Source: an uncultured Candidatus Saccharibacteria bacterium (GTDB lineage: Bacteria; Patescibacteriota; Minisyncoccia; Phycocordibacterales; JAACPR01). Taken from it: DNA of 64,000 nt. Where the stretch lies: NCBI GenBank assembly GCA_964630375.1, contig CAZVRT010000003.1, forward strand, positions 41,972 to 105,971. The letters are read 5' to 3'. Positions 14,700 through 39,850 of the stretch are shown piece after piece. How positions within the stretch are numbered: position 1 is the first letter of the stretch; each line of letters begins with the position of its first letter. Below the pieces are notes generated by a model. That model searched no databases, was not told the DNA's origin, and worked only from the letters and a program-made list of their open reading frames with translations. A program made the translations under genes and the position numbers.

Positions 14700-15380
14700 T
14701 TACAAAATATATTTACCTGAAAAATCATCACGAATAATTCTACCATTTTCAACCGTTACCACTCTCTTTTCAAGAGAATCGATAATGTGTTTGTTGTGAG
14801 TTGTCAAAATGACTGTTGTTCCAAGATCGTTAATCTTTTTTAGAATTTGAATAATATCTTGAGTGTTTACTGGATCCAAGTTTCCTGTTGGTTCGTCAGC
14901 AACCAAAATATCTGGTTGATTTACAATCGCTCTTGCAATTGCAACTCTTTGTTGTTCTCCACCAGAAAGTTCATTTGGAAAGTTCCAAGCTTTTTTTGTA
15001 AGCCCAACTAGTTCAAGAGCATGCGGAACATCTTCACGAATTTCTTCATCTGTTCTACCTGCAACCTCCATCGCAAAAGCAATGTTTTCAAAAACTGTCT
15101 TGTTTGAAATCAAACGAAAGTCTTGGAAAATTGTTCCGATATTTCGTCTAAGTTGGCAGACTTGATGGTGCTTCAAACAATGAATATCCAAAGATTCAAA
15201 TAAAACCTTTCCATCGCTTGGAAGTTCTTCCGCCAAAAGAAGTTTTATTAAAGTAGTTTTACCTGCTCCAGAGTGACCAACAATAGATACAAATTCACCT
15301 GGCTCAATCTTTAGATCAACATTTTCCAATGCAACCGTATCGTCTGAATATATTTTTGTAACGTTATCAAAGTAAATCAT
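14700..15380 (-). CDS. ftsE: FtsE ABC ATPase
   Basis: Walker A GHSGAGKTTL, signature LSGGEQQRVAIARA, Walker B ILVADEPTGNLD. Confidence 0.9.
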   Translation of the reverse strand: MIYFDNVTKIYSDDTVALENVDLKIEPGEFVSIVGHSGAGKTTLIKLLLAEELPSDGKVLFESLDIHCLKHHQVCQLRRNIGTIFQDFRLISNKTVFENIAFAMEVAGRTDEEIREDVPHALELVGLTKKAWNFPNELSGGEQQRVAIARAIVNQPDILVADEPTGNLDPVNTQDIIQILKKINDLGTTVILTTHNKHIIDSLEKRVVTVENGRIIRDDFSGKYIL

Positions 15381-16251
15381 TTTGTTTTGCTGATTCTATA
15401 AATTCGTCTAATTCTCCTCCTAAAATTTTCTCCACATCTCGAACTTCAAAATTTGTTCTGTGATCCTTTACCATTTGATAAGGATGTAAAACATAAGAAC
15501 GAATTTGGTTTCCCCATTTTGCGTCAGTCACTTTTGAAATTTGCATACCGCGTTCTTTTTCCAATCGTTCTTGTTCTCTAAGATTATACACTTTTCCTCG
15601 AATCAGTTCCAATGCTTTTTCCTTATTTTGCAACTGGCTTCTTTCAGAATCAATAAAAGCTGTTAATTTAGTTGGTTTATGCACGACACGCACCGCAGTT
15701 TCTCTTTTATTTACATTTTGTCCTCCTGGACCGCTTGATTTTGTAAAATCAATTTCTAGTTCATCTTCAGGAATTTCAAAGTCAGTAATTTTTTCCATTT
15801 TTGGAATTACTTCAACCATAACAAAAGAAGTGTGTCTTTGTGATGCGGAATTGAAAGGTGAAATGCGAACAAGTCGGTGAACGCCGGACTCATATTTCAG
15901 CGTGCCATAAACATTTTTACCATCAATCTCATAGGTCAAATTTCTGTATCCGCCGACCGTGTTTTTATTTTCATGCAAAAGAGTTACGCTCCAATTTTTT
16001 GACTTCGCAAAAGAAAAATACATTTCTGCCAACATTCGCGCAAAATCTTCAGCATCATCACCTCCTGCACCTGCAAAAATTGTTAAGTGAGCTCCGCCTC
16101 TGTCATATTTTCCAAAACCTTGTAGCTCGTCTTTGAGTTCTTGCAACTCGCGAATCATTTGTTGCGCCGCATCTTTATCAGACCAAAAATCACCTTGCAT
16201 CATCGCAGATTCAATTTCTTTTATTCGAGCATCTATTTCAGATTTTTGCAT
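15367..16251 (-). CDS. prfB: Peptide chain release factor 2, a short form. Start set at MQKSEID; the track's N-terminal extension overlaps tRNA-Thr.
   Basis: SPF tripeptide (ISPFNSASQRHTSF) and GGQ motif (SGPGGQNVNK). Domain 1 is about 70-85 aa shorter than in E. coli RF2. No CUU UGA frameshift site is visible. Confidence 0.8.
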   Translation of the reverse strand: MQKSEIDARIKEIESAMMQGDFWSDKDAAQQMIRELQELKDELQGFGKYDRGGAHLTIFAGAGGDDAEDFARMLAEMYFSFAKSKNWSVTLLHENKNTVGGYRNLTYEIDGKNVYGTLKYESGVHRLVRISPFNSASQRHTSFVMVEVIPKMEKITDFEIPEDELEIDFTKSSGPGGQNVNKRETAVRVVHKPTKLTAFIDSERSQLQNKEKALELIRGKVYNLREQERLEKERGMQISKVTDAKWGNQIRSYVLHPYQMVKDHRTNFEVRDVEKILGGELDEFIESAKQNDLL

Positions 16252-16277
16252 ATTAAAAGATAGTATCACAAATCTTG

Positions 16278-16349
16278 AGCCGTTACCGAGGATTGAACTC
16301 GAGACCTCTTCATTACCAATGAAGTGCTCTACCACTGAGCTATAACGGC
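16278..16349 (-). tRNA. tRNA-Thr (anticodon GGT)
   Basis: Acceptor GCCGTTA / TAACGGC, D-loop AGTGGTA, anticodon loop TTGGTAA, T-loop TTCAATC. Confidence 0.8.
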
Positions 16350-16397
16350 GTAAAAGTATATTACATAATTTTTAAGAAAGAAGAAATTAAAAAATTT

Positions 16398-16436
16398 AAA
16401 AGAAAAAAGCGCGTCGACAAAGTCGACGCGCTTTGA
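16398..16436 (-). terminator. GC-rich perfect palindrome terminator after the SLT-like gene
   Basis: AAAGCGCGTCGAC AA GTCGACGCGCTTT, followed by a T-run on the minus strand. Confidence 0.6.
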
Positions 16437-16455
16437 ATTGTTGATTGTTATCCCC

Positions 16456-17679
16456 TCACCTAGTCGCTACATAGCTCGTAGATTCAGGAGTGTGATGTTG
16501 TGGTACAGCCTGACCAGGCCAAAGCACAGCCAGGCCACCGATGGATTCAAGAGAAGTCTCTCCTTCATCCCACGAAGGAAGTTCGAACTTTGCACCTCCC
16601 GCTTTTGAATACTGAGACTCAAGAGTTTCTGCTTCTTTTGCTCCGGCAGGACCAAAGAACACCAAGCCGTCTTGATCGGGGTTTTGAATCCCGAGAGTGG
16701 TAAGAAGCTTGTCTCCCCCCTTCTCGTCATACCCTTTAACCGAAGGAAGGTTTTGCACCACCTGTTCAAGATACTGCTTTACCCCCTTCCGGTTATCACC
16801 ATGGAAGTAGCCGTAGGCACGCTTATATTTCAAAGCACCGGTAGGACCGGCATTCCAACAGCGGGAAATCCACTCGAAGTTTTGTCCCTGACAGTGCTCG
16901 AAAACCCAAGCTTGGAAAACAAGCTCCGAAAGAGCCAGATCTCCGTGAAAGTCTGGTCCGATCAAGCCAAAACCTTTAACAGCATCCACCGAGCGATAAG
17001 CCCGTTGAGAAATCTGCAATGGTCCATGAGCTTTCTCGTATCCTTTCATACTGCGGTCACCCAAGCAAGTCAGATTGATCATCCCCTTTTTGTCATCATC
17101 GCAAGTTTCCCTGCAAATGATAGCCACAATTTCTTGCGGCGAAAGAAGGCGCCGGTACTTACCACTCTCGAAAAGTGCATTGAGATGCTCTTTGGCATCC
17201 ACAACTCGCTTCTCGACATTTTTCAGAGCAGTCGGCTCAAAGAATCCGGGAGTGGTAAGCCACTTGAAAACATTGTCTGCGGTTACCCGAACAGGATTCC
17301 GTTTCTGAGCATTACTTTTCTCCCTTTCCGGGTATTCCCCAAGAAAGTTTTGCTCTTCTTCAAGCCTCCGCTTTTCAGCGGCTTCTTGAAAAAGTTGCTC
17401 ACGGGACACAGTTCGGACAATGACCCTAGGAAGGGATTGCACCGCTTCTTCTTGCGGAACCAGCTGGCTGAAAACCCGCTCCTCTTCTTCATGAAGAATC
17501 TGGGGCTTCTCGAGAATCCTTGAATTGTCGTAAAACAAAACTTCGACAGCCTCGCTCTTGGACACAGAATTCAGAGAATTCATCTTGTGCTTCACCAGCA
17601 CTCCGAGGACTCCACAAAAGAATCCCGTGAGGCTGACAAGAAACACAACAACAATCTTGTTTGAAAAGAACTTTTCCAT
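16456..17679 (-). CDS. Membrane-anchored SLT-domain (GH23-like) lytic transglycosylase, compositionally foreign
   Basis: N-terminal TM segment. Motifs ICRETCDD...GPLQISQRAY...CWNAGPTG resemble SLT E...GLMQ...AYNAG. The gene is about 50% GC against about 30-35% in its neighbours. The plus-strand ORFs inside it are GC artefacts. Confidence 0.5.
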   Translation of the reverse strand: MEKFFSNKIVVVFLVSLTGFFCGVLGVLVKHKMNSLNSVSKSEAVEVLFYDNSRILEKPQILHEEEERVFSQLVPQEEAVQSLPRVIVRTVSREQLFQEAAEKRRLEEEQNFLGEYPEREKSNAQKRNPVRVTADNVFKWLTTPGFFEPTALKNVEKRVVDAKEHLNALFESGKYRRLLSPQEIVAIICRETCDDDKKGMINLTCLGDRSMKGYEKAHGPLQISQRAYRSVDAVKGFGLIGPDFHGDLALSELVFQAWVFEHCQGQNFEWISRCWNAGPTGALKYKRAYGYFHGDNRKGVKQYLEQVVQNLPSVKGYDEKGGDKLLTTLGIQNPDQDGLVFFGPAGAKEAETLESQYSKAGGAKFELPSWDEGETSLESIGGLAVLWPGQAVPQHHTPESTSYVATR

Positions 17680-17803
17680 TTCTCTTATCTTTCTATATTT
17701 TGGTTTTGAGGTTTGAAATTTGATTTCCCGTCTATTTTAGCATATTTTTTGACAAAAGTCAACCTATATTGTGCTATAAAAACCATGTTTGAAGCCCTAA
17801 AAC

Positions 17804-17835
17804 AAAAAAGCCTCTTAAAAGAGGCTTTTTTGTTT
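17804..17835 (-). terminator. Terminator hairpin after the giant surface protein gene
   Basis: aaaaaagcctcttaaaagaggctttttt: stem AGCCTCTT/AAGAGGCT flanked by A and T runs. Confidence 0.6.
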
Positions 17836-17851
17836 ACTTTAGTTTTCTGGT

Positions 17852-20800
17852 TTATTGCTCCCTAATATCTGGATTTACCAAACAAGTTACAGGACCAGAA
17901 GTTTGTGTTGTTTGATTTGCGCCCTCTCCACTTACACAAGTCATGGTATAAGTTCCAGGCTGAACACCCATATTCCCTTCTATTCTTTCAGGTTCCGGAT
18001 TACTGTTTCCTATTCCGGGACCAAATATTTGCATAGGGGAATTATTTCTATAAAGAGTACATGTGTGAGCCATATCCACATTCCAAGACAAATTACACGT
18101 TCCTCCTTTATTTATTACATTTTGATCAAGAGTCAGATTTTTGTTAAATATCGGTATTGGAAGAGTACACATTCCTGTTAAATTGTTGCAGATATTTTCT
18201 CCAGGACACTCATCGTTTGTCATACATTCTCTAATAAATATTGAACAAGAAGCACTAGCTTCGTTGTTGCTTGCATCCTTCACTACAACAGTCGTTGTTA
18301 CAGTTTGTCCTTTTCTATAATTATGAGTATCTAATAATATACCAGAAGTATATTTGTTTTCATGCCAAGTTAACTTACCATTAACAAACCACTTGTAAGT
18401 TAGAGTGCCTTCTGCCGGATCTTGAACATCAACACCCCAGATAACTGACTCCATCAAACTAAATACATTTTTTGGACTATTATTTGCAATAGCATCTTGA
18501 TTTGCATATGCATAACACCTTGGAACCATTGGCGCAACATTCATAGAACATCGAGCGGTATTAGAAACTTTTTCTCCTTGATAATTTTTTGCATAAACAT
18601 CCATGACATAAGTTTTATTTCCTGCCGAAGGATAATTTATGTTGAATCTACCGCCATTATTTGTTCCGGGTCTTTCTGCATTATTAGGTGTAGAATAACC
18701 AACTGCATTCCAAACGAAAATTAAACCATTTACATCGTATTCTCGAGAAGCCGCTCCAACTTGAGGAATCCAAGAAACTGTCGGACTTTCTTCTTTTGTA
18801 TTTTTTGGACTAGCACTACACGCCAACTCAACCGGACAATTTTCACAACCTCCTTCTTCTCCCCCTCTCATCACACCAATTCTGGCACGAATAGTGTCAT
18901 TTGGCTTCATTCCTTGGAATCCTTGATCATCTCTTACCCAAACATTATCTATTAAATATTCAACGCCTGTTTTAATCCAACCAAAAGAATTTTCAGAGTC
19001 AAGTTCAACTCTATGAGAGCTTGTAGACATTAGCAAAGCTCCAAAGTATGGAATACTTACCCCGCCATATGTAGTTTCACATTCCGATGGTGGCAATCCA
19101 CTAAAAGCAACATTCCCTTTATTATCTCTAACTAATCCCAAAAGAGAACTTGGTTGACCTGCTCCGCAAACTCTTAAAGGTGATCGCAAATATATTTCAT
19201 CAATATTCTTATTTCCATCAAAGTTTTCGTCCACATAGAAACTAGCTCGCACACCTGTTGGATATGTACAATGACGCTCTCCTTTTACAAATTCAACTCC
19301 TATATCTGCATCACAATAAGCGGCAGAGAAACTTGTATTAGCTAAAATCGCAAAATCTTGATAATACTCTCCATCTGAATCTGCCAATTCTTTTATAATG
19401 TCTCCTTCTTCATAATTTTCAAAACAAAATTCAAAAATGTAAGGACCATAGACCCATTCATTCACAACATCGTTGGCTGCAACAGGCACCCCAGCTAAAC
19501 CATAAGAATCGGCTGGCTTTAAATCATGATCAAGAACATATTCTGAAGTTTTATCAGCAACCACAATCCAATAACGATAGCTCACTCTTTTATCAAGTTG
19601 ACCGATGTTAATACTTTCTTGTCTTGATATCTCACTTAAGTATTCACTTCCTTTCCAATTATTAAAATATTTTATTTGAACATTATCAGCTCCGTTTAGA
19701 CATTGCTTACATTGAACTTTGATATAAACAGTTACCTTATCACAATCTTCGGTACAAATACCTTTATACTCTATGGGCAGAAAGTCACTTTGAATATCCA
19801 AAAGAGTTTTATCTATTTTAGGAGTATTTGGACCGTTTTCATAAGGCAAACAATAATCACCTCCCATTGCACCCGGTTCGAAATAATACCCTTCTGGACA
19901 AGGAGAGTCACATTCATCTCCCCAATAACCATTAATTCCACAAATATATTCTACTGGAGGATACTCACAAGGAGCAGGCTGCCAATAGTTCGAGGCACTA
20001 GGATTATCACACAATTCTGGCTGATTATTAGGATCTGCTCCGGGATTAGTATAATAAGTACAAGGAAGAGGTGTTCCTGGGCTGTCAGCGTTTATGTCCG
20101 TACAAACATTACCATCACCAGTGCCACCAGAGTCCCCCGGATTGTTGTTATACTCACAACCTCCTCCGTCCATATTTGCATACGGATTGAAGTTTGCCGC
20201 AGTTGGGTCCATGCAACCATAGATATAATCATCTACAGGACCTTGATAACAGGACATGTAATCACAAGTCCAATCTTCCATATTTGCTGAAGAATTGTAG
20301 TTACATGCACCAGGATCTGTACATCCATAAGTGTATTCCCACTCTTGTGCTGACACATACTCTTGTCCAGAAAACATAATTGCTCCACCGATAAGAGATG
20401 CTGCTATCAAAATACTTGCAACAGTGAAATTTACTTTCTTTCTAAAAAACGCGAGTCCGCCTAGAACAATTAACAAAACTACCAATGTGATAATTGTGTT
20501 TCTTAATAAATTAGATTCTTTAGGGTACTCAAAAATTTGAGTGGTATCCATTGTTATAACTTGCTCATCTAAAACAGTTCCATCTTCAGAAGTTAAAATA
20601 ACTTGGACTTCATCAATTAAAGTTTTTGATTTTATTTTTGTATCAGCAAAACTTACATTCACATCAATTCCATAATAATCACCATTCATTGGAATTTCCT
20701 TTTGTTCTTCTTGTACAACTTCACCTTCGTTTTTGAAAATTGCTTTTAGAAAAATTTTCTGCACATCAGAATCACCTGCAGCCACAATATTTGCTACAAG

Positions 20801-21766
20801 ATTTATCGGTTCTCCTTTTCTGTATGAGTTAATATTTGTTTCTAAATCAAAAATACGTCCAAGCAATCCTTTATACAAAAGTCTAACTGCTATACTTTCA
20901 GAAATCTGCACACCTCGACTGTCTTTAAAATCAAGTGTTGCATTATGAGGACCAGATTGCATATTTTCCCAAGGTTCTATTTTGAATTCCAAACCACCAC
21001 CAACAACTAAACTACTTAACGGAATGTTTAATTTTTCGTAAACAATTTTTGTGTAATCGTTTGCATGAGTAACTTTATAATCAACAAATATTTCTTCACG
21101 ATTCAATGCATTAAACAACTGCTCATTCATTTCTCTTGGAAAAGCAATCAAATACTCTCCGTCTTTTTCAAGATTTGGTCCTTGTTTAAGTCCATACACC
21201 TCCTTATTCTTCATATCAATAAGTGCCGCTTCTTTACTCAAGATAAAACGATTTAAGCCCGTTAGCCTTACAGGTTCTTTAGTATATGTAACTCCATAAA
21301 TAGAAAGTTCTTCATTATAAATTGTTCCTCTTATAAAATATGATCCGCCAGGTATTGTGTCTGGTACTTGATATTCAATTGTTTTTCTTAAAACTTGATT
21401 TGGAGCAAGTCTTTCAAGAGAATCAGAAGTAGAAAACACATACTGCAAATCTTCAAAAAGTAATCCAGTTTCTTTTAAAGCCTCCCCTTGATGAAACTCA
21501 AAATTATATCTCAAATTGTCCACAAATCTGTTTGATTTGTTTGCAATGTTAAAATTTATACTAACAGTTCTATTTTCATTTGAATAAATAACATTGTTGA
21601 TTGTTATAACCAAAGGAACTTCATTTTCATTTACAACATCTGTGATTACAGAACTGTCGTTGCTAGTTATCTGAGCAAATAAAGTATTGAATGGAAAAAT
21701 TAGAGCTAATAAAAACAAAAAAACTGATAAAACCTTAAAACAAAAAAACTGATTTGCAATTTTCAT
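17852..21766 (-). CDS. Giant (about 1,304 aa) cysteine-rich surface protein with signal peptide and internal TM segments
   Basis: Start placed at MKIANQFFCFKVLSVFLFLLALIF (a signal peptide); the track's extension overlaps the upstream gene. Repeated YGCxDPxAxNxNxxANMxxxxCxY motifs; TM helix TIITLVVLLIVLGGLAFF. Confidence 0.55.
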   Translation of the reverse strand: MKIANQFFCFKVLSVFLFLLALIFPFNTLFAQITSNDSSVITDVVNENEVPLVITINNVIYSNENRTVSINFNIANKSNRFVDNLRYNFEFHQGEALKETGLLFEDLQYVFSTSDSLERLAPNQVLRKTIEYQVPDTIPGGSYFIRGTIYNEELSIYGVTYTKEPVRLTGLNRFILSKEAALIDMKNKEVYGLKQGPNLEKDGEYLIAFPREMNEQLFNALNREEIFVDYKVTHANDYTKIVYEKLNIPLSSLVVGGGLEFKIEPWENMQSGPHNATLDFKDSRGVQISESIAVRLLYKGLLGRIFDLETNINSYRKGEPINLVANIVAAGDSDVQKIFLKAIFKNEGEVVQEEQKEIPMNGDYYGIDVNVSFADTKIKSKTLIDEVQVILTSEDGTVLDEQVITMDTTQIFEYPKESNLLRNTIITLVVLLIVLGGLAFFRKKVNFTVASILIAASLIGGAIMFSGQEYVSAQEWEYTYGCTDPGACNYNSSANMEDWTCDYMSCYQGPVDDYIYGCMDPTAANFNPYANMDGGGCEYNNNPGDSGGTGDGNVCTDINADSPGTPLPCTYYTNPGADPNNQPELCDNPSASNYWQPAPCEYPPVEYICGINGYWGDECDSPCPEGYYFEPGAMGGDYCLPYENGPNTPKIDKTLLDIQSDFLPIEYKGICTEDCDKVTVYIKVQCKQCLNGADNVQIKYFNNWKGSEYLSEISRQESINIGQLDKRVSYRYWIVVADKTSEYVLDHDLKPADSYGLAGVPVAANDVVNEWVYGPYIFEFCFENYEEGDIIKELADSDGEYYQDFAILANTSFSAAYCDADIGVEFVKGERHCTYPTGVRASFYVDENFDGNKNIDEIYLRSPLRVCGAGQPSSLLGLVRDNKGNVAFSGLPPSECETTYGGVSIPYFGALLMSTSSHRVELDSENSFGWIKTGVEYLIDNVWVRDDQGFQGMKPNDTIRARIGVMRGGEEGGCENCPVELACSASPKNTKEESPTVSWIPQVGAASREYDVNGLIFVWNAVGYSTPNNAERPGTNNGGRFNINYPSAGNKTYVMDVYAKNYQGEKVSNTARCSMNVAPMVPRCYAYANQDAIANNSPKNVFSLMESVIWGVDVQDPAEGTLTYKWFVNGKLTWHENKYTSGILLDTHNYRKGQTVTTTVVVKDASNNEASASCSIFIRECMTNDECPGENICNNLTGMCTLPIPIFNKNLTLDQNVINKGGTCNLSWNVDMAHTCTLYRNNSPMQIFGPGIGNSNPEPERIEGNMGVQPGTYTMTCVSGEGANQTTQTSGPVTCLVNPDIREQ

Positions 21767-21803
21767 ACTTAAAAATTTTACCACAATAAAGTTGTATAAA
21801 ATT

Positions 21804-23579
21804 TTATTCTTGTTGGATATCCACAAGTGTAGTATATGCAGGACAAGTATTGTAAAGTTTTTGGTGAGGACCGATTCCAGCAACTTTTCCATTTTCAAGA
21901 CAAATTATTTTGTCAGCATGTCTGACAGTCGAAAGTCTGTGCGCAATAACAATAACAGTTCTATTTTTAAAAGATTCTTTCATCGCCTCGTGAATTGCTT
22001 TTTCATTTTCTCCATCAAGCGAGCTTGTGGCTTCATCAAAAATTAAAATTTCCGGATTTACTGAAAGTGCGCGTGCAATTCCAACTCTTTGTCTTTGCCC
22101 TCCAGAAAGTTTAATTCCTCTTTCTCCGACTATTGCGTCAAAAGGCTTTTCGCCAAGTCTTTCAAAAAACTGATCGATTCGTGTAATTTTTGCCAATTCA
22201 ATTAATTTTTCATCAGTCCATTTTTCTTTTTCTTCGTCAGAAAGTCCAAACAAAATATTTTCACGCAAAGTTGTATTTTGCAAAATAACTTCTTGCTCCA
22301 CAATTCCGATATTTTTTCGATGTGCTTCAAGAGAAAGTTCTTTCAAATCTACTCCTTCAATTTTTATATTTCCAGAATCAGGATCAAATGCTCGCAAAAG
22401 CAAATTGATTATTGTAGTTTTTCCGGCACCAGAACGACCCACAATCGCACAAACTTCACCTGCGTTTATTTTGAAAGAAATATCATCCAAAGCTTTCAAG
22501 TTTCCTTTTTCTTCATCATCATTTGTATGAGAAAAAGTAATGTTTTCAAATTCTATTGAATAACCACCTTCTTTTGATTCTAAAATTTTTGGCTCCGCAA
22601 TTTCTTTAATATCATTTTCAATCGCTAAAATTTCAAAGAATTTTTCGACTTGCGGCCATTGAAATGCGAGACGGCGAAAAGTATGATAAACACTTTCAAC
22701 AATCCCATTCATCCTCAATCCATAAGTCAAAAGAGTTACTGCTGCACCGACAGTCATTACATTCCAAGATGTTACCGACAAAATAGACAATGCGACAATC
22801 GTAACTAATCCAATGTCGCCAATAATAGAAACCGTACCCGTTTTTATTTCATAAGGAACCCAAGTTTTTTGAAAATGCTTTGTTAAGTCATCTAGTTTTT
22901 TATTTTGTTCAGACAAAACCTTCTTTTCAGCCCCTCGAAAAATCACCGACGTTACAACTCTAATCATTTCAGAATTCCACCGATTAACCTCAAGCCTGTG
23001 ATCTCTAAATTTTCTCCACTGTTCTAATTGTCTAATATTTATAAATTGATAAACAGAAAATTGAAAAATACTAATTATTAAAATCACAATACCGATCAAA
23101 GGCGAAATGAAAATCATTGCAGATATAATAAAAAGGAATCTAAAAAAGTTTGGGAGAATATCATAATTTAAACTAAAAAATATTTGTCCGACAGCACTTC
23201 TTCCTTGATCTAAAACACTTTGTTTAAATCCGCTATCATTTTTAACGTGTTGTCCCACAGAAATCTCTGTCATCTTTTTTAAAGAAACTTCATCCAAAAT
23301 ATTATCAGCTTGTTTCTGAATATTTCGCATTTCATTAACATTTCTAATCAAAATTAATAATGAAGTTGCAAATATTGAACAAATCAAAAATATCAAATTG
23401 TCTTTGAGTTCAAAAATATTTTTCCCAGATGTAATTCCATCGATTATCTTTCCAAAATAGTAAGGCCAAATTAAAGCAACAGCAGAAAAAATAATGATTA
23501 AAATCATTTGAAAAGCAATCGCCTTTCTGAGCGGTTTAAAAAATTTGAATATTTTAATTAAATTTGATGTTAGATTCAT
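21804..23579 (-). CDS. ABC exporter, fused permease and ATPase (MsbA/MdlB-like)
   Basis: Six TM segments, Walker A GRSGAGKTT, signature LSGGQRQRVGIARAL, Walker B ILIFDEATSSLD. Confidence 0.85.
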   Translation of the reverse strand: MNLTSNLIKIFKFFKPLRKAIAFQMILIIIFSAVALIWPYYFGKIIDGITSGKNIFELKDNLIFLICSIFATSLLILIRNVNEMRNIQKQADNILDEVSLKKMTEISVGQHVKNDSGFKQSVLDQGRSAVGQIFFSLNYDILPNFFRFLFIISAMIFISPLIGIVILIISIFQFSVYQFINIRQLEQWRKFRDHRLEVNRWNSEMIRVVTSVIFRGAEKKVLSEQNKKLDDLTKHFQKTWVPYEIKTGTVSIIGDIGLVTIVALSILSVTSWNVMTVGAAVTLLTYGLRMNGIVESVYHTFRRLAFQWPQVEKFFEILAIENDIKEIAEPKILESKEGGYSIEFENITFSHTNDDEEKGNLKALDDISFKINAGEVCAIVGRSGAGKTTIINLLLRAFDPDSGNIKIEGVDLKELSLEAHRKNIGIVEQEVILQNTTLRENILFGLSDEEKEKWTDEKLIELAKITRIDQFFERLGEKPFDAIVGERGIKLSGGQRQRVGIARALSVNPEILIFDEATSSLDGENEKAIHEAMKESFKNRTVIVIAHRLSTVRHADKIICLENGKVAGIGPHQKLYNTCPAYTTLVDIQQE

Positions 23580-27788: not shown

Positions 27789-29768
27789 ATGAATAAATTT
27801 AAAAATTCCATAGTTCGGTATTTTGCTGGACTGGTTATGGCAGCGATGGTTGCCGTTCCTTCAGTTCACGCATTAACACTGAGCGATGTAGAACTACTAA
27901 TTTCACTTGGCATAATTCCTGCTGATAAAGCTACTGCAGCAAGAGCTGCTGTTTCAGGAAATCAAACAGGCAACGTCTGTGGAGCCTTCACTAGAGATTT
28001 AACTCTGGGAAGCACAGGTTCCGACGTTGTTGCTCTGCAAACATTTCTTGAATCAAGAGGAATGTTGGTGATGCCGGTTGGTGTTGCAAAAGGATATTTT
28101 GGAACAATAACCAGAAGTGCTTTAGCTAGATATCAAGCTTCGGTTGGGATCTCTCCAGCTGCTGGATATTTTGGACCGATAACCCGAAGCGATGTTTCAT
28201 CAAAGTGTACTCCAACTACACCCACTCCTCCACCAACAACTGATCCTGATCAAGAATTAAGAGGAGGTGAAGCAAGTATCAGAAACTACACGACTCTTTC
28301 AACTTACTCAAATGAAGATCTTGAAGAAGGTGAATCAGGAAAAGTATTCGCTTCAAGATTCCGAGTTGAAGATGGTGATATAAGAATCGAAAGAGTTTCT
28401 GTAAGACTTGAAGCTGTGTCACAAAACAACGAAGACGAGCCATGGAAGCATATTGAATCTATGGACTTGTACGTTGGTGGACGAAGAGTTGCAAGTGCTG
28501 ACGTAGACAGTCAAAGTGACTGGTCACGAGGAGAAAGTACTGATAACTCAGTTGCAGGTACAAGATCTTATGAAATGAGATTTTCAAACTTGAGAGAAGT
28601 TATCGAACGAGGTAGTAACGGAGAAATTGAAATTCTTGTTCAAACATCGGACCGAATTGATAATTCAGATCTTCCACAACGATGGAAAGTTTGGATTCCA
28701 CGAGACGGAATAAGAGCACTTGATGCAAGAAACGTTCAACACTACATTGGTTCAGACAGCGATTCTCGATTCTTCAATATCGAAAACGCAGGTGACGGTG
28801 AAGTAAGAATCCGAGAAAGCGACCGAGATCTTGATCCAACAATTTTAATTGTTGATTCAAGTAGCCGATCTCCTTCTTATGAAGTATTCAGATTTGTCGT
28901 AGATAATACAGACAATGCTGATGTGTTGTTAAATACAATGACACTGGTTGCCTCAACTTCTCACAATAACATTCAAAATGTTATTTCAGATTTGTCAGTA
29001 AGAATTGGTGGAAAAAACTACCAATATGACAATGCCTCAACAACATCAAATCTAGGAGAATACCTATTTGATTTTGAAGACAACAACGATCAAATTTCTA
29101 TTGATAGAAATGAACGAGTTGAAGTTGTAGTTTCAGCTAGATTCAATAGACTAAACGGAAATTATCCAGATGGTACTCAAATTCAATTTGGTATCGGAAG
29201 AATAAATGGTGATAATTACGGCACTGAATTTGGAATCGAAGCAGAAGGTGAATCTACAGGTGACAGATCTACAATTAGCGGAAGACAAGAAGGTTCAGTA
29301 CACACTCTACGAACTCAAGGAGTTAATGTTACAACTACTTCAAGAGGAACATTCGTATACAGAGAAAACACTTCATCTACATTATCAGATGACGAAGGTG
29401 AATACAGATTCACAGTGAGAGTAACTGCATTCGAAGAAGATGCTTGGATTGAAAACAGTGTATCAGTAACAGCATCAAGTACAGTTGGTTTTGTAACAGA
29501 GATTACTGGAGATGCATTTTCTGGAATTAGCAACGCGCGAATTGCAGACACATCAGCCAGAACTCTTACAAACAACAGATACAGAATTCCGGAAGGAGCA
29601 ACAGAAACCTTTGAAATCGTAGTAAGACTAGACCCAGATGCAAGAGGAGCTTTCGGACTAAGATTGACTGACATCAACTTTGCCGACAGTTCAACAGGTA
29701 CACCAACAAGCTACGTTGTACCAAACACTCAAGAGTTTAGAATTCCTACTTACACAATTCAAAACTAA
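27789..29768 (+). CDS. Secreted protein with a peptidoglycan-binding (PG_binding_1-like) domain
   Basis: Signal peptide. GSTGSDVVALQTFLESRGML...GYFGTITRSALARYQASVGISP...GYFGPITRS. The rest is Ser/Thr/Asp/Arg-rich. GC is higher than in neighbouring genes. Confidence 0.55.
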   Translation: MNKFKNSIVRYFAGLVMAAMVAVPSVHALTLSDVELLISLGIIPADKATAARAAVSGNQTGNVCGAFTRDLTLGSTGSDVVALQTFLESRGMLVMPVGVAKGYFGTITRSALARYQASVGISPAAGYFGPITRSDVSSKCTPTTPTPPPTTDPDQELRGGEASIRNYTTLSTYSNEDLEEGESGKVFASRFRVEDGDIRIERVSVRLEAVSQNNEDEPWKHIESMDLYVGGRRVASADVDSQSDWSRGESTDNSVAGTRSYEMRFSNLREVIERGSNGEIEILVQTSDRIDNSDLPQRWKVWIPRDGIRALDARNVQHYIGSDSDSRFFNIENAGDGEVRIRESDRDLDPTILIVDSSSRSPSYEVFRFVVDNTDNADVLLNTMTLVASTSHNNIQNVISDLSVRIGGKNYQYDNASTTSNLGEYLFDFEDNNDQISIDRNERVEVVVSARFNRLNGNYPDGTQIQFGIGRINGDNYGTEFGIEAEGESTGDRSTISGRQEGSVHTLRTQGVNVTTTSRGTFVYRENTSSTLSDDEGEYRFTVRVTAFEEDAWIENSVSVTASSTVGFVTEITGDAFSGISNARIADTSARTLTNNRYRIPEGATETFEIVVRLDPDARGAFGLRLTDINFADSSTGTPTSYVVPNTQEFRIPTYTIQN

Positions 29769-29807
29769 CAAACTTTGTTAAGTTTTAGAGGATTGTTAAA
29801 GCAAAAC

Positions 29808-29835
29808 AAAAAGCCGCCCAAAGGGCGGCTTTTTG
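29808..29835. terminator. Bidirectional intrinsic terminator
   Basis: aaaaagccgccc aaa gggcggcttttt. It serves both the plus-strand gene ending at 29768 and the minus-strand tRNA-fMet gene. Confidence 0.7.
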
Positions 29836-29853
29836 TTTTGCTCTATTTTCTTG

Positions 29854-30138
29854 TTGCGGGGCCCGGAATTGCACCGGGGTCTAGAGGTTATGCTTACTAC
29901 TATGATTTTCATCACCACAATTGTGTTTGTAGTCTGGACTATGCCATCACCCTCTTTTTAAAAGTAGGGTGTCTACCGTCTAGTCTCTACACCTTCAAGT
30001 CATTTAGACAAGCTTGGCTCGGCATTGCCAACCTGTATAAGGTAAGGTTTCACCGAATTTGGCAGATTCTCAATAAAAATTTCTTTTTATTGGGCCCTTA
30101 AATTTGAGCCTCTCGAGGTACTACTCCTCCACCCCGCG
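29854..30138 (-). tRNA. Initiator tRNA-fMet (CAT) gene split by a group I intron. Exon 1 is 30107-30138, exon 2 is 29854-29892.
   Basis: Joined exons give CGCGGGGTGGAGGAGTAGTACCTCGAGAGGCT|CATAACCTCTAGACCCCGGTGCAATTCCGGGCCCCGCAA. C1-A72 mismatch, A11:U24 pair, anticodon loop CUCAUAA. The 5' exon is very similar to E. coli tRNA-fMet. Confidence 0.75.
29893..30106 (-). mobile_element. Group I self-splicing intron (214 nt) in the tRNA-fMet anticodon loop
   Basis: 5' splice site after a U; IGS GGGCC; P2 hairpin. P element AAATTCGG (30047-30060) and Q element AATGCCGAGCC (30016-30026). R element GAGACTAGACGG (29976-29987), P8 hairpin CACCCT..AGGGTG, S element CATAGTCCAGAC (29932-29943). P7 pairs GACUA with UAGUC. 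Terminal omega-G. Confidence 0.7.
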
Positions 30139-30169
30139 ATATTTCATCCAACTAAAATGGATATGCAAG

Positions 30170-30178
30170 ATTATAACA
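30170..30178 (-). promoter_or_regulatory. Extended -10 element (TGTTATAAT) upstream of the tRNA-fMet gene
   Basis: The minus strand reads tgTtaTAATc about 31 nt upstream of tRNA position 1. This implies a processed leader. Confidence 0.3.
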
Positions 30179-30255
30179 CTATTTTTTATAAACGCAACAT
30201 TCTTTTATACAAATAAATTAAATATAATAGTTTTACCTGCAATCCCTAGTTCAAT

Positions 30256-30936
30256 ATGTCTGATACCAAAAATAAAGAAAAAGCAATCTATTTAAGAAAA
30301 CAAGGTTTTAGCATTAACGATATATCTAAAAAATTAAACAAAAATAAAAGCACTATCAGTTATTGGTGCAGAGACATTAAACTAACAAATAAACAAATTA
30401 AAATTATTCAAGAAAAAATAATTACAGGAGGACAAAAAGGTTCATTGATCAGATCAAAGAAACTGCAAATTGACAGAAAAATTAAAAACAAAAAATATTC
30501 AGATTTAGGCAAATCAGATTTGGGAAAAATATCAAAAAGAGATTTGTTTATGATTGGATTGGCTTTGTATTGGGGTGAAGGATATAAAAAAGGAAATTAT
30601 GAATTTGGTTTTACAAACAGTGATCCTAGAATTATAAAAACATTTTTAACATGGTTAAAAGAAATTTATGAAATATACGAAGATAAGTTTATTCTTAGGG
30701 TTTCTATAAATCAATTACACAAACATAGAGAAAAACAAATCATCAATTTTTGGCAAAAAATTACAAAAACTCAGAAATCACAATTTACAAAAACTAGTTT
30801 TATAAAAACTGAACCTAAAAAACAATATAAAATAAACAATGACTATTATGGAACTTTGAGAGTAAAAGTTCGTAATGGCGCAAATTTACGCAGGAGAATA
30901 ATGGGCTCACTAGAAAAAATTTCAGAAATTATTTAA
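30256..30936 (+). CDS. Free-standing LAGLIDADG-type homing endonuclease with an N-terminal HTH
   Basis: The dodecapeptide-like motif LFMIGLALYWGEGYKKG, followed by YEFGFTNSDPRIIKTFLTWLKEIY, resembles single-motif LAGLIDADG enzymes. The N-terminal IYLRKQGFSINDISKKLNKNKSTISYW is a resolvase-type HTH. Confidence 0.55.
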   Translation: MSDTKNKEKAIYLRKQGFSINDISKKLNKNKSTISYWCRDIKLTNKQIKIIQEKIITGGQKGSLIRSKKLQIDRKIKNKKYSDLGKSDLGKISKRDLFMIGLALYWGEGYKKGNYEFGFTNSDPRIIKTFLTWLKEIYEIYEDKFILRVSINQLHKHREKQIINFWQKITKTQKSQFTKTSFIKTEPKKQYKINNDYYGTLRVKVRNGANLRRRIMGSLEKISEII

Positions 30937-39407: not shown

Positions 39408-39623
39408 AAAAATCTATTATTAGTTAACTAATTTATTTAAATAAATATATGAATAGAAATAGAGGTTTTACATTGATTGAATTGCTTGTAGTGATCGCTA
39501 TCATCGGTATTCTTTCTTCAGTTGTGTTGGCTTCATTGAACACAGCTCGAGGTAAAGGAGAAGATGCTGCAAAGAAAGCGAACCTTTCAAACGCAAGAGC
39601 ACAGGCTGAACTTTATTATGATA
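39408..39623. repeat. Left arm of a perfect 216-bp inverted repeat (promoter region plus the first 58 codons of a pilin gene)
   Basis: Hand-checked identical to the reverse complement of 40161-40376. Confidence 0.8.
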
Positions 39624-39850
39624 GTCATAGTAATAGTTATGCGGGAGTTTGTGGAAGTGAAGGAATAGAAGCTAATGTTTCTGCAGCAGGTGGAACATGT
39701 ACTGCTGATGCAGATGGATGGACTGCGACTACTGCATTGTCATCAGGTAGTTTCTGTGTGGATAGCACAGGAGCAGCTACTGTAGCTTCTTCTACAGTTT
39801 CGAATGGAACAACTTGGACAGTGGGCACTCATGATTGTGCTTCTCTGTAA
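39449..39850 (+). CDS. Type IV pilin (PilA-like), variant A
   Basis: MNRNRGFTLIELLVVIAIIGILSS... The first 58 aa are identical to the convergent gene at 39925-40335. Confidence 0.8.
   Translation: MNRNRGFTLIELLVVIAIIGILSSVVLASLNTARGKGEDAAKKANLSNARAQAELYYDSHSNSYAGVCGSEGIEANVSAAGGTCTADADGWTATTALSSGSFCVDSTGAATVASSTVSNGTTWTVGTHDCASL

Follow-up and report, generated by a model that had tools for sequence, protein, structure and literature searches.

Among described enzymes, family 1 lytic transglycosylases (PF01464, GH23; Escherichia coli MltE/EmtA, Slt70, Pseudomonas aeruginosa Slt, and MltF) and i-type lysozymes come closest to the protein considered here. SLT/GH23 enzymes have a lysozyme-like alpha-helical fold in which the catalytic Glu ends a helix, and they act with a single catalytic carboxylate, which leads to a 1,6-anhydroMurNAc product. 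The i-type lysozymes, or destabilases (PF05497, CAZy GH22 i-type), have solved examples from animals (Hirudo, 8bbu; Tapes japonica, 2dqa; and Meretrix, 3ab6), which are small, secreted, and disulfide rich, and the catalytic dyad of destabilase is Glu34/Asp46 (PMC10126035). As for the arrangement of the locus, the nearest parallels are polymorphic toxins (Rhs and contact-dependent inhibition [CDI] systems), modular bacteriocins and endolysins, and tRNA-associated genomic islands. Here, we describe a gene with GC-rich codons next to a tRNA-Thr in a 64,000-nt stretch of DNA (the window) from a Candidatus Paceibacterota bacterium, a member of the candidate phyla radiation (CPR). An initial annotation had seen at this place a textbook tRNA-adjacent horizontal acquisition of an SLT-like, cell-wall-cleaving enzyme. 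Our analysis suggests that the gene is probably one allele of a strain-variable accessory cassette and encodes a polymorphic surface peptidoglycan-hydrolase effector.

The window has an overall GC content of 33.1%, and nearly all of its genes lie on the minus strand (see Table 1 for the features of the locus). The claimed rise in GC content for a single gene is real. The coding sequence (CDS) has a GC content of 0.485 and a GC content at third codon positions (GC3) of 0.480, while the means for the 50 other open reading frames (ORFs) of the window are 0.333 (standard deviation [SD], 0.039) and 0.223 (SD, 0.044), corresponding to z scores of 3.9 and 5.8, respectively; across the whole window, no sliding stretch of 1,224 nt outside positions 15000 to 18500 exceeded 0.41 GC. 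The shift is restricted to the translated region, with GC3 already at 0.57 in codons 1 to 40, and the GC content is 0.30 in the 5' untranslated region and promoter (17680 to 17797) and 0.125 in the spacer between terminator and tRNA (16350 to 16405). Moreover, the gene shuns the favorite codons of its host (AGA, 0 of 21; TTA, 0 of 38; ATA, 0 of 13; ACA, 0 of 16), and the probability of its codon pattern under host usage is 9e-19.

To place the gene among its relatives, the order of the surrounding genes was compared. The locus consists of a large surface-protein gene, in some cases with an epimerase gene as well, the cassette, tRNA-Thr(GGT), prfB, ftsE, ftsX, and pyrG, and every cassette relative with sequenced flanks (L001, L002, L003, L006, L089 to L091, and L093) sits at the same site, including that of the outgroup L002, whose housekeeping proteins are 74 to 84% identical. 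The tRNA-Thr(GGT) gene follows directly after the cassette in L001, L002, L003, L006, and L089 and after the empty site in L007. By housekeeping proteins (PyrG, 90%), L007, the nearest reference species, ranks with the closest relatives; in it, an epimerase gene leads directly to the tRNA, with no cassette, GC island, or promoter motif at the site. The cassette gene was found at none of 80 Patescibacteria pyrG loci (L007 included), and a gapped alignment of L007 with L004 and L005 revealed neither a clean junction nor a target-site duplication. The gene is accessory and dispensable.

Comparison of closely related loci revealed that the content of the site is exchanged between conserved flanks. 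In L004 and L005, two contigs from one sample, the flanks are 85 to 93% identical and the CDSs ∼55% identical; high identity covers the end of the upstream gene, the promoter to just before the start codon, the terminator, and the tRNA, with the start codon and the terminator just past the stop codon as the edges of divergence. In L003 and L087, which come from independent samples, the flanks, the first ∼290 nt, and the last ∼65 nt of the CDS are 97 to 100% identical, identity is 77 to 94% over the ∼90 nt before the last ∼65 nt, and the central 620 to 740 nt are unrelated. At the protein level, P0012 and P0002 have an identical 95-residue anchor and linker and a near-identical tail (GPQG..KF.LPSWD..IASNP), with an unrelated central domain between them. 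For this alternative domain of P0012, one subthreshold Pfam match to DPBB (double-psi beta-barrel; E = 0.005) and nothing in a PDB profile search were obtained, and it is tentatively regarded as DPBB-like. P0016, a third allele of the alternative type, occurs at the same locus in three independent Joint Genome Institute (JGI) contigs. The locus is thus polymorphic and recombining, with the whole CDS or its central module replaced between conserved flanks.

The distribution and divergence of the alleles were examined as well. Cassette content is incongruent with the housekeeping tree, where the empty L007 is nearest to L089 (alternative domain) and L003 (lysozyme type) and L087 (alternative domain) are almost one strain; within the lysozyme type, L002 is the outgroup of the allele tree, as in the host tree. 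Between the window and L001, the cassette proteins are only 57% identical, versus 83 to 89% for prfB, ftsE, ftsX, and pyrG, and excess identity at four-fold sites, corrected for composition, is ∼0 in the cassette versus 0.25 to 0.40 in the flanking genes. The cassette protein evolves ∼5 times faster than the flanking genes. The ratio of nonsynonymous to synonymous substitution rates (dN/dS) among orthologues is 0.06 to 0.15 where dS could be estimated, which denotes purifying selection, and dS was saturated in most pairs. Like polymorphic toxins and modular bacteriocins or endolysins, the locus carries an interchangeable enzymatic module between conserved anchoring modules, near-identical strains have unrelated catalytic domains, and swapping proceeds via recombination in the conserved flanks. 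Unlike in Rhs and CDI systems, the variable module is central rather than C terminal, no immunity gene, orphan cassettes, or association with a secretion system was seen, and the activity is predicted to be directed against peptidoglycan rather than to be toxic inside the cell.

The GC-rich codon usage, with few codons ending in A, is common to the alleles. Cassette GC3 lies above that of its own flanks by ∼0.16 to 0.36 at every locus and in both catalytic types (window, 0.48 versus 0.22; L001, 0.36 versus 0.20; L003, 0.46 versus 0.14 to 0.34; L004, 0.35 versus 0.15; L005, 0.39 versus 0.14; L002, 0.49 and 0.53 versus 0.29; L006, 0.56 and 0.64 versus 0.28; L087, 0.50 versus 0.15; L088, 0.39 versus 0.18; L089, 0.43 versus 0.19 to 0.26), and avoidance of TTA, ATA, and AGA is common to the lysozyme-type cassette genes examined. 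Because the alleles are all GC3 rich despite saturated silent sites, the GC excess appears to be maintained and is not a fresh foreign signature. By a two-state amelioration argument, a foreign composition that was passively inherited would have decayed to the host equilibrium; this leaves either maintenance of the excess in place or its renewal from an unsampled reservoir richer in GC. Recent import of each copy from such a reservoir (other lineages or a mobile element) would concern the composition only and is given a low probability. It gains from the fact that recombinational replacement demonstrably occurs, from alleles that are far older than their flanks, and from the presence of short domain relatives in GC-rich bacteria such as Bradyrhizobium, but all 13 observed contexts lie at one and the same chromosomal site in Paceibacterota that are AT rich or moderately so, with no other context found, the AT-rich promoter is conserved along with the cassette, the shift respects the CDS boundaries, and the L002 outgroup position in the lysozyme-type allele tree matches the host tree. 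Given a shift confined to the CDS and an AT-rich conserved promoter, we favor a cause at the coding level. The threonine codons of the cassette are ACT (10), ACC (4), ACG (2), and ACA (0), most of them read by the tRNA-Thr(GGT) directly downstream, and U34-modified or lysidine tRNAs decode the avoided codons TTA, AGA, ATA, AAA, GAA, and CAA. This match of codons and tRNA, together with the set of avoided codons, may be a coincidence or may reflect translational control.

To determine what the cassette encodes, the protein was compared with sequence and structure collections. PF01464 (SLT) gave no match for the window protein at E ≤ 10, and no NCBIfam family was matched, so the proposed GH23/SLT identity was not recovered; two other matches, DUF3654 (E = 0.04) and uL13 (E = 1.2), were discarded as being at chance level. 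Only four homologues (49 to 56% identity) were found among 5.8 billion proteins. A profile search of 1.8 billion representatives added a few more close members, followed by a large family of short secreted proteins; both searches together yielded ∼9 lysozyme-type and 3 alternative alleles in all. A word-index search with the domain alignment returned three proteins only, and a first scan of species-representative genomes found no relative of the window protein. Long anchored proteins of this subfamily are extremely rare and carry no annotation. The short family comprises 673 proteins, of which many come from Pacebacteria, Taylorbacteria, and other Patescibacteria; it has the motif VES.GN..GD...KAYGPLQIRQ..VDDVN...ELS...AY..Y...FE..ARIHNGGP.G...YW.KV and carries precomputed Pfam domains of the Destabilase or SLT type. 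Members matched Destabilase (PF05497) and SLT weakly, and subthreshold SLT matches were obtained for only 7 of 40 distant relatives.

The family assignment was then approached with three alignments, covering the window-type domain (A3), the short family (A4), and a combined profile headed by the window domain (A5). With hhalign, A3 and A4 matched each other at a probability of 99.9% (E = 3e-32). A4 in turn matched i-type lysozymes of the PDB (8bbu [destabilase], E = 1e-17; 2dqa, 1e-14; 3ab6, 7e-11) and reached only an E value of 0.07 with the SLT enzyme MltE, and A5 matched the destabilase sequence at a probability of 99.3% (E = 4e-20). Compared directly, A3 gave an E value of ∼1 against the PDB and a probability of 19% against destabilase. 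An AlphaFold2 (AF2) model of residues 120 to 330 had a predicted local distance difference test score (pLDDT) of 91.7 and a predicted template modeling (TM) score of 0.89; this confident model needed an alignment deepened with the short family, since a 5-sequence alignment gave a pLDDT of 35. The top 26 Foldseek matches of the model were nearly all lytic transglycosylases or lysozyme-like proteins (MltE, Slt, MltF, phiKZ gp144, and Bdellovibrio DslA). The nearest characterized family would thus be the i-type lysozymes/destabilases, of which the window domain appears to be a very divergent relative, and the broader expectation of a cell-wall-cleaving enzyme of the lysozyme superfamily is backed by this profile chain and by weak structural neighbors.

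The core motifs of i-type lysozymes align with those of the window protein, namely, a catalytic Glu in (V/R)E(S/T), G-P-x-Q-I, a (W/H)N(G/A)GP.G loop, and an acidic residue after the Glu, in the loop of the catalytic Asp. The window protein differs from i-type enzymes in that it does not by itself reach the Pfam model PF05497; it is a bacterial predicted enzyme of 407 residues with a membrane anchor, and its domain has four Cys residues only, without the Cys pattern or disulfide-rich framework of the animal proteins. Relative to the i-type core, it also has ∼60 extra N-terminal residues, an insertion of 6 or 7 residues between Glu and Asp, the anchor, the linker, and the tail. With GH23 enzymes it shares a similar pattern of E-(S/T), G-x-x-Q, and (Y/W)-N-x-G motifs, membrane attachment in the case of MltE, and, to judge from the weak AF2 neighbors, probably the lysozyme-like fold; unlike these single-carboxylate lytic transglycosylases, which do not need one, it has an invariant Asp. 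PF05497 already includes uncharacterized bacterial members, and PMC10126035 mentions, and excluded from its own analysis, a branch formed by metagenomic sequences of bacteria and viruses. A literature search found no link of destabilase-like enzymes with CPR bacteria among the top-ranked papers, nor did it find in-frame module swapping at a fixed site or maintained GC-rich codon usage.

The transmembrane anchor and the motifs reported for the protein in the initial annotation were all found, the latter reading RE191TC, G219PLQIS, AYR, and W275NAGP. No segment other than the anchor is strongly hydrophobic, all 10 relatives share it, and AF2 predicted a helix for residues 2 to 35; a linker of ∼90 residues, with a short charged helix at residues 93 to 106, separates the anchor from the lysozyme-like domain. 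Glu191 aligns with the destabilase catalytic Glu (Glu34) in the A5 profile comparison. The spacing from this Glu to Asp208 is 17 residues, versus 12 residues for the corresponding pair of destabilase, and Asp208 may be equivalent to Asp46. Because of this second conserved carboxylate, hydrolysis would be more likely than lytic transglycosylation. The tail motif is also kept in alleles with a different catalytic module. The catalytic domain of the window protein is nearest to the P0003/P0004 type (76% identity), and its C-terminal tail (..GGLAVLWPGQAV..) is more like the long ones of the L002 and L006 alleles than the short ..IASNP end of its nearest relatives, which suggests that the window allele is a mosaic of a P0003/P0004-type domain and an L002/L006-like tail.

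The origin proposed in the initial annotation, a recent integrase-type, tRNA-targeted gain in which a GC-richer donor supplied a GH23/SLT lytic transglycosylase and the foreign GC content had not ameliorated, was weighed against these results. The gene is a strong compositional outlier adjoining a tRNA and is missing from the nearest reference species, its E...GPLQIS...WNAGP motifs are GH23-like, and its top structural neighbors are lytic transglycosylases. In common with tRNA-associated islands, the cassette also has an atypical composition, a tRNA neighbor, and a patchy presence. However, such islands lie at the tRNA 3' end with an integrase and attachment (att) repeats, whereas the cassette is a single gene that adjoins the tRNA on its 5' side, and homologous recombination exchanges it at one fixed site, the same in all flanked relatives including the outgroup. 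The one gene of the island and its neighbors encode no integrase or recombinase, no repeat of 16277 to 16349 was present anywhere in 15800 to 18300, and the direct repeat of the tRNA-Thr 3' end expected at about 17700 to 17850 was absent. A 14-nt repeat at 16397 and 17798 reflects the similar T-tails of two terminators. Furthermore, GC content is no clock of arrival where alleles are all GC3 rich with saturated silent sites, the GC shift ends at the CDS edges, and PF01464 gave no match, in contrast to the destabilase profile link. Such a gain is therefore quite improbable. Of the proposed horizontal acquisition, exchange at the locus holds, in the form of allele and module swaps, and the recent arrival read from GC content does not.

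A prophage endolysin remnant or phage-derived lysis gene, also suggested at the outset, is very improbable. Phages typically carry lysozyme-like enzymes, and the weak structural matches include phiKZ gp144, but the protein matched no PHROG family at E ≤ 0.1 and had no relative in 2.9 million viral contigs, the flanks contain no phage genes, the chromosomal site is conserved, and an anchor with a long linker and a tail is unlike an endolysin.

The cassette is an autonomous transcription unit with its own promoter, one gene, and a strong terminator. Its promoter, predicted from the sequence, is the best sigma-70-like site of the region (10 of 12 matches, with TG), and the -35 element sits within the palindrome TTGAC-TTTT-GTCAA (17749 to 17762). 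In a 30-nt promoter block, TTGACTTtTGTCAAnAnAnATGnTAnnATA, 23 of the positions do not vary across nine loci (alignment A7), and the surroundings are unconserved. The window and 12 fetched cassette loci each have a single copy of the palindrome TTGACWWWWGTCAA, which was absent from L006 and from all of 81 other loci searched; the palindromic sequence TTGACTTTTGTCAA could be a putative operator for a candidate regulator. The terminator palindrome AAAGCGCGTCGAC/GTCGACGCGCTTT (16406 to 16434) has 8 GC pairs among 13 and a folding energy of -21.8 kcal/mol (z = -6.8), and the orthologues have terminators of other sequences that are likewise GC rich. The terminator at 17800 to 17835 forms 16 pairs with only 5 GC, so the two differ, as had been noted.

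The main rival to an effector, an autolysin of the cell's own wall that belongs to the division machinery and is perhaps controlled by FtsEX, is unlikely on balance. Wall enzymes linked to FtsEX elsewhere include PcsB, CwlO, EnvC, and RipC; the position of the cassette two genes upstream of ftsE-ftsX is conserved at every locus, the protein has a membrane anchor, and its linker contains the short charged helix. Against this, the gene is dispensable, as the empty L007 site demonstrates; it has its own promoter and terminator, with the tRNA and prfB separating it from ftsEX; and faster evolution with swaps of alleles and folds in near-identical strains would be unusual for a component of the divisome.

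TABLE 1 Coordinates of the cassette, its parts, and adjoining features in the window
Feature	Position	Strand	Description
tRNA-Thr(GGT)	16277..16349	-	5' end toward the cassette; conserved landmark on the right, ahead of prfB-ftsE-ftsX-pyrG
Cassette intrinsic terminator	16396..16434	-	13-bp perfect stem, 3-nt loop, T-tail
GC-rich CDS	16456..17679	-	407 aa; anchor, linker, lysozyme-like domain, and C-terminal tail
C-terminal tail (residues 316-407)	16459..16734	-	Conserved GG.KF.LPSWD; long tail variant
Antisense ORF	16672..17523	+	283 aa; spurious, by-product of avoided TTA, CTA, and TCA codons
Predicted lysozyme-like catalytic domain (residues 127-315)	16735..17301	-	Profile chain and AF2 model
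Asp208 codon, candidate second catalytic carboxylate	17056..17058	-	Invariant in A3 and A4; ≥90% in A5
Glu191 codon, predicted catalytic acid	17107..17109	-	Invariant in 13 close and 71 wider family members
N-terminal transmembrane anchor (residues ∼8-29)	17593..17658	-	19-residue Kyte-Doolittle maximum, 2.59
Predicted cassette promoter	17734..17762	-	-35 TTGACT, 17-nt spacer, extended -10 TGcTAAAAT
Terminator of the upstream 1,348-aa surface-protein gene	17800..17835	.	Left edge of the cassette unit; -20.6 kcal/mol

Other features inside the island were inspected. The long ORFs on the opposite strand, called spurious in the initial annotation, do exist and lack conservation among orthologues, where the codon-aligned antisense frame is open over only 54 to 118 aa, versus 304 aa in the window CDS. 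An antisense gene (the 283/304-aa ORF) was therefore ruled out, and the long ORF arises because the cassette avoids the three codons listed in Table 1. An Rfam scan of the island passed the tRNA alone, with no Rfam family inside the CDS, and a structured RNA as the reason for the GC island was dropped. The CDS contains a 13-nt perfect inverted repeat (CGAGAGTGGTAAG/CTTACCACTCTCG) at 16692 to 16704 and 17158 to 17170, with arms 453 nt apart and a third near-copy at 17247 to 17259, which could be due to chance or could be a recombination element or an RNA-structure element.

Variation in gene number was also observed at the site. L002 (7025 to 9270) and L006 (680 to 3062) have two tandem GC-rich genes, with a short secreted i-type-like lysozyme upstream of the long anchored one, and L093 has a tandem pair too, judged from its identical promoter region. 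The short tandem lysozymes (209 and 217 aa) are 51% identical between the genomes, which belong to the outgroup lineage, and the pair of L002 is placed between tRNA-Thr(CGT) and tRNA-Thr(GGT).

Upstream of the cassette, the 1,348-aa protein (17852 to 21898, minus strand) belongs to no Pfam family and has transmembrane segments and Cys-rich repeats; its gene is syntenic in relatives and fast evolving (42% amino acid identity to L001; dN/dS, ∼0.38), and the product may be a surface or adhesin protein functionally tied to the cassette. Downstream, a 322-aa ORF with a GTG start (15367 to 16335, minus strand) overlaps the tRNA and is an artifact. The true start of the prfB-like gene is Met 16251; its product is a short RF2-type factor of 294 aa with an SPF motif, equal in length in all relatives, with no space for the usual N-terminal part or the frameshift site. 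Elsewhere in the window, a plus-strand block (27789 to 30936) among the otherwise minus-strand genes encodes a 659-aa protein with a PG_binding_1 domain (GC, 0.395), a 108-aa ORF that is the sole other GC3 outlier (0.44), and a 226-aa AT-rich protein resembling helix-turn-helix (HTH)/Terminase_5 proteins; this block may be a second insertion that is cell-wall related or mobile. In addition, a small protein with an N-terminal methylation (type IV pilin-like) motif is encoded at 39449 to 39850 (plus strand), and the retrieved literature implicates type IV pili in episymbiosis of the CPR.

Several points weigh against the interpretation of the cassette as a polymorphic surface hydrolase effector. 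The comparison loci are metagenomic contigs, some shorter than 2 kb, with the key patterns recurring in independent samples and assemblies. The window protein had no meaningful match to Pfam, NCBIfam, or PDB sequence models, and its family link is thus transitive; the Foldseek matches are weak (E of at least 0.011; TM scores of 0.3 to 0.4), i-type lysozymes were not among the structural matches listed by Foldseek, and Asp208 lies in the loop bearing destabilase Asp46 but 2 to 3 alignment positions off. No cognate immunity gene or orphan cassettes were found, as the terminator and tRNA-Thr follow directly downstream in all loci with no conserved extra small ORF. The nearness of ftsEX would also fit an own-wall autolysin, the topology of the protein is assumed, and the explanations for the GC excess, such as selection on translation or recombination-linked bias, are candidates only.

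On the effector interpretation, the N-terminal anchor would hold the protein in the cell membrane, and the lysozyme-like domain, beyond the linker and followed by the conserved tail, would be extracellular and cleave peptidoglycan glycan strands outside the cell. The site would act as a hot spot of homologous-recombination exchange among related strains, at which the cassette can also be absent. Replacement of alleles and folds with the anchor and tail kept would point to selection by a variable external target, for which the cell walls of hosts or competitors, or their lysozyme inhibitors, are candidates. Such a pattern would fit an effector under diversifying, target-driven selection rather than a housekeeping enzyme or a recent tRNA-targeted island. 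The protein may thereby be relevant to an episymbiotic or predatory lifestyle, as the initial annotation had proposed.

Beyond the cassette itself, the locus is a counterexample to the use of atypical GC content as a sign of recent horizontal transfer, with a GC excess that ends at the start and stop codons and is conserved over anciently diverged alleles in several AT-rich genomes. With this assignment, the i-type lysozyme/destabilase lineage would also gain a divergent subfamily of bacterial proteins that lack annotation. A wider and more speculative possibility, which we hold only tentatively, is that Paceibacterota carry an undescribed polymorphic locus for cell-wall attack, in which a tethered effector with modules swapped in frame (i-type-lysozyme-like and possibly DPBB/RlpA-like), a palindromic promoter/operator, and a regulatory GC-rich code together form a determinant of host range or host killing. 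If so, the GC-rich code could be regulatory, tying translation to particular tRNAs or tRNA modifications, and the cassette would determine host range or host killing and could be a natural target of PliI, the bacterial inhibitors of i-type lysozymes. Little has been established about the contact of ultra-small CPR/Patescibacteria with other cells' envelopes, and a strain-variable, anchored, putative peptidoglycan hydrolase with swappable modules offers a testable candidate for a determinant of host interaction or competition in the CPR.

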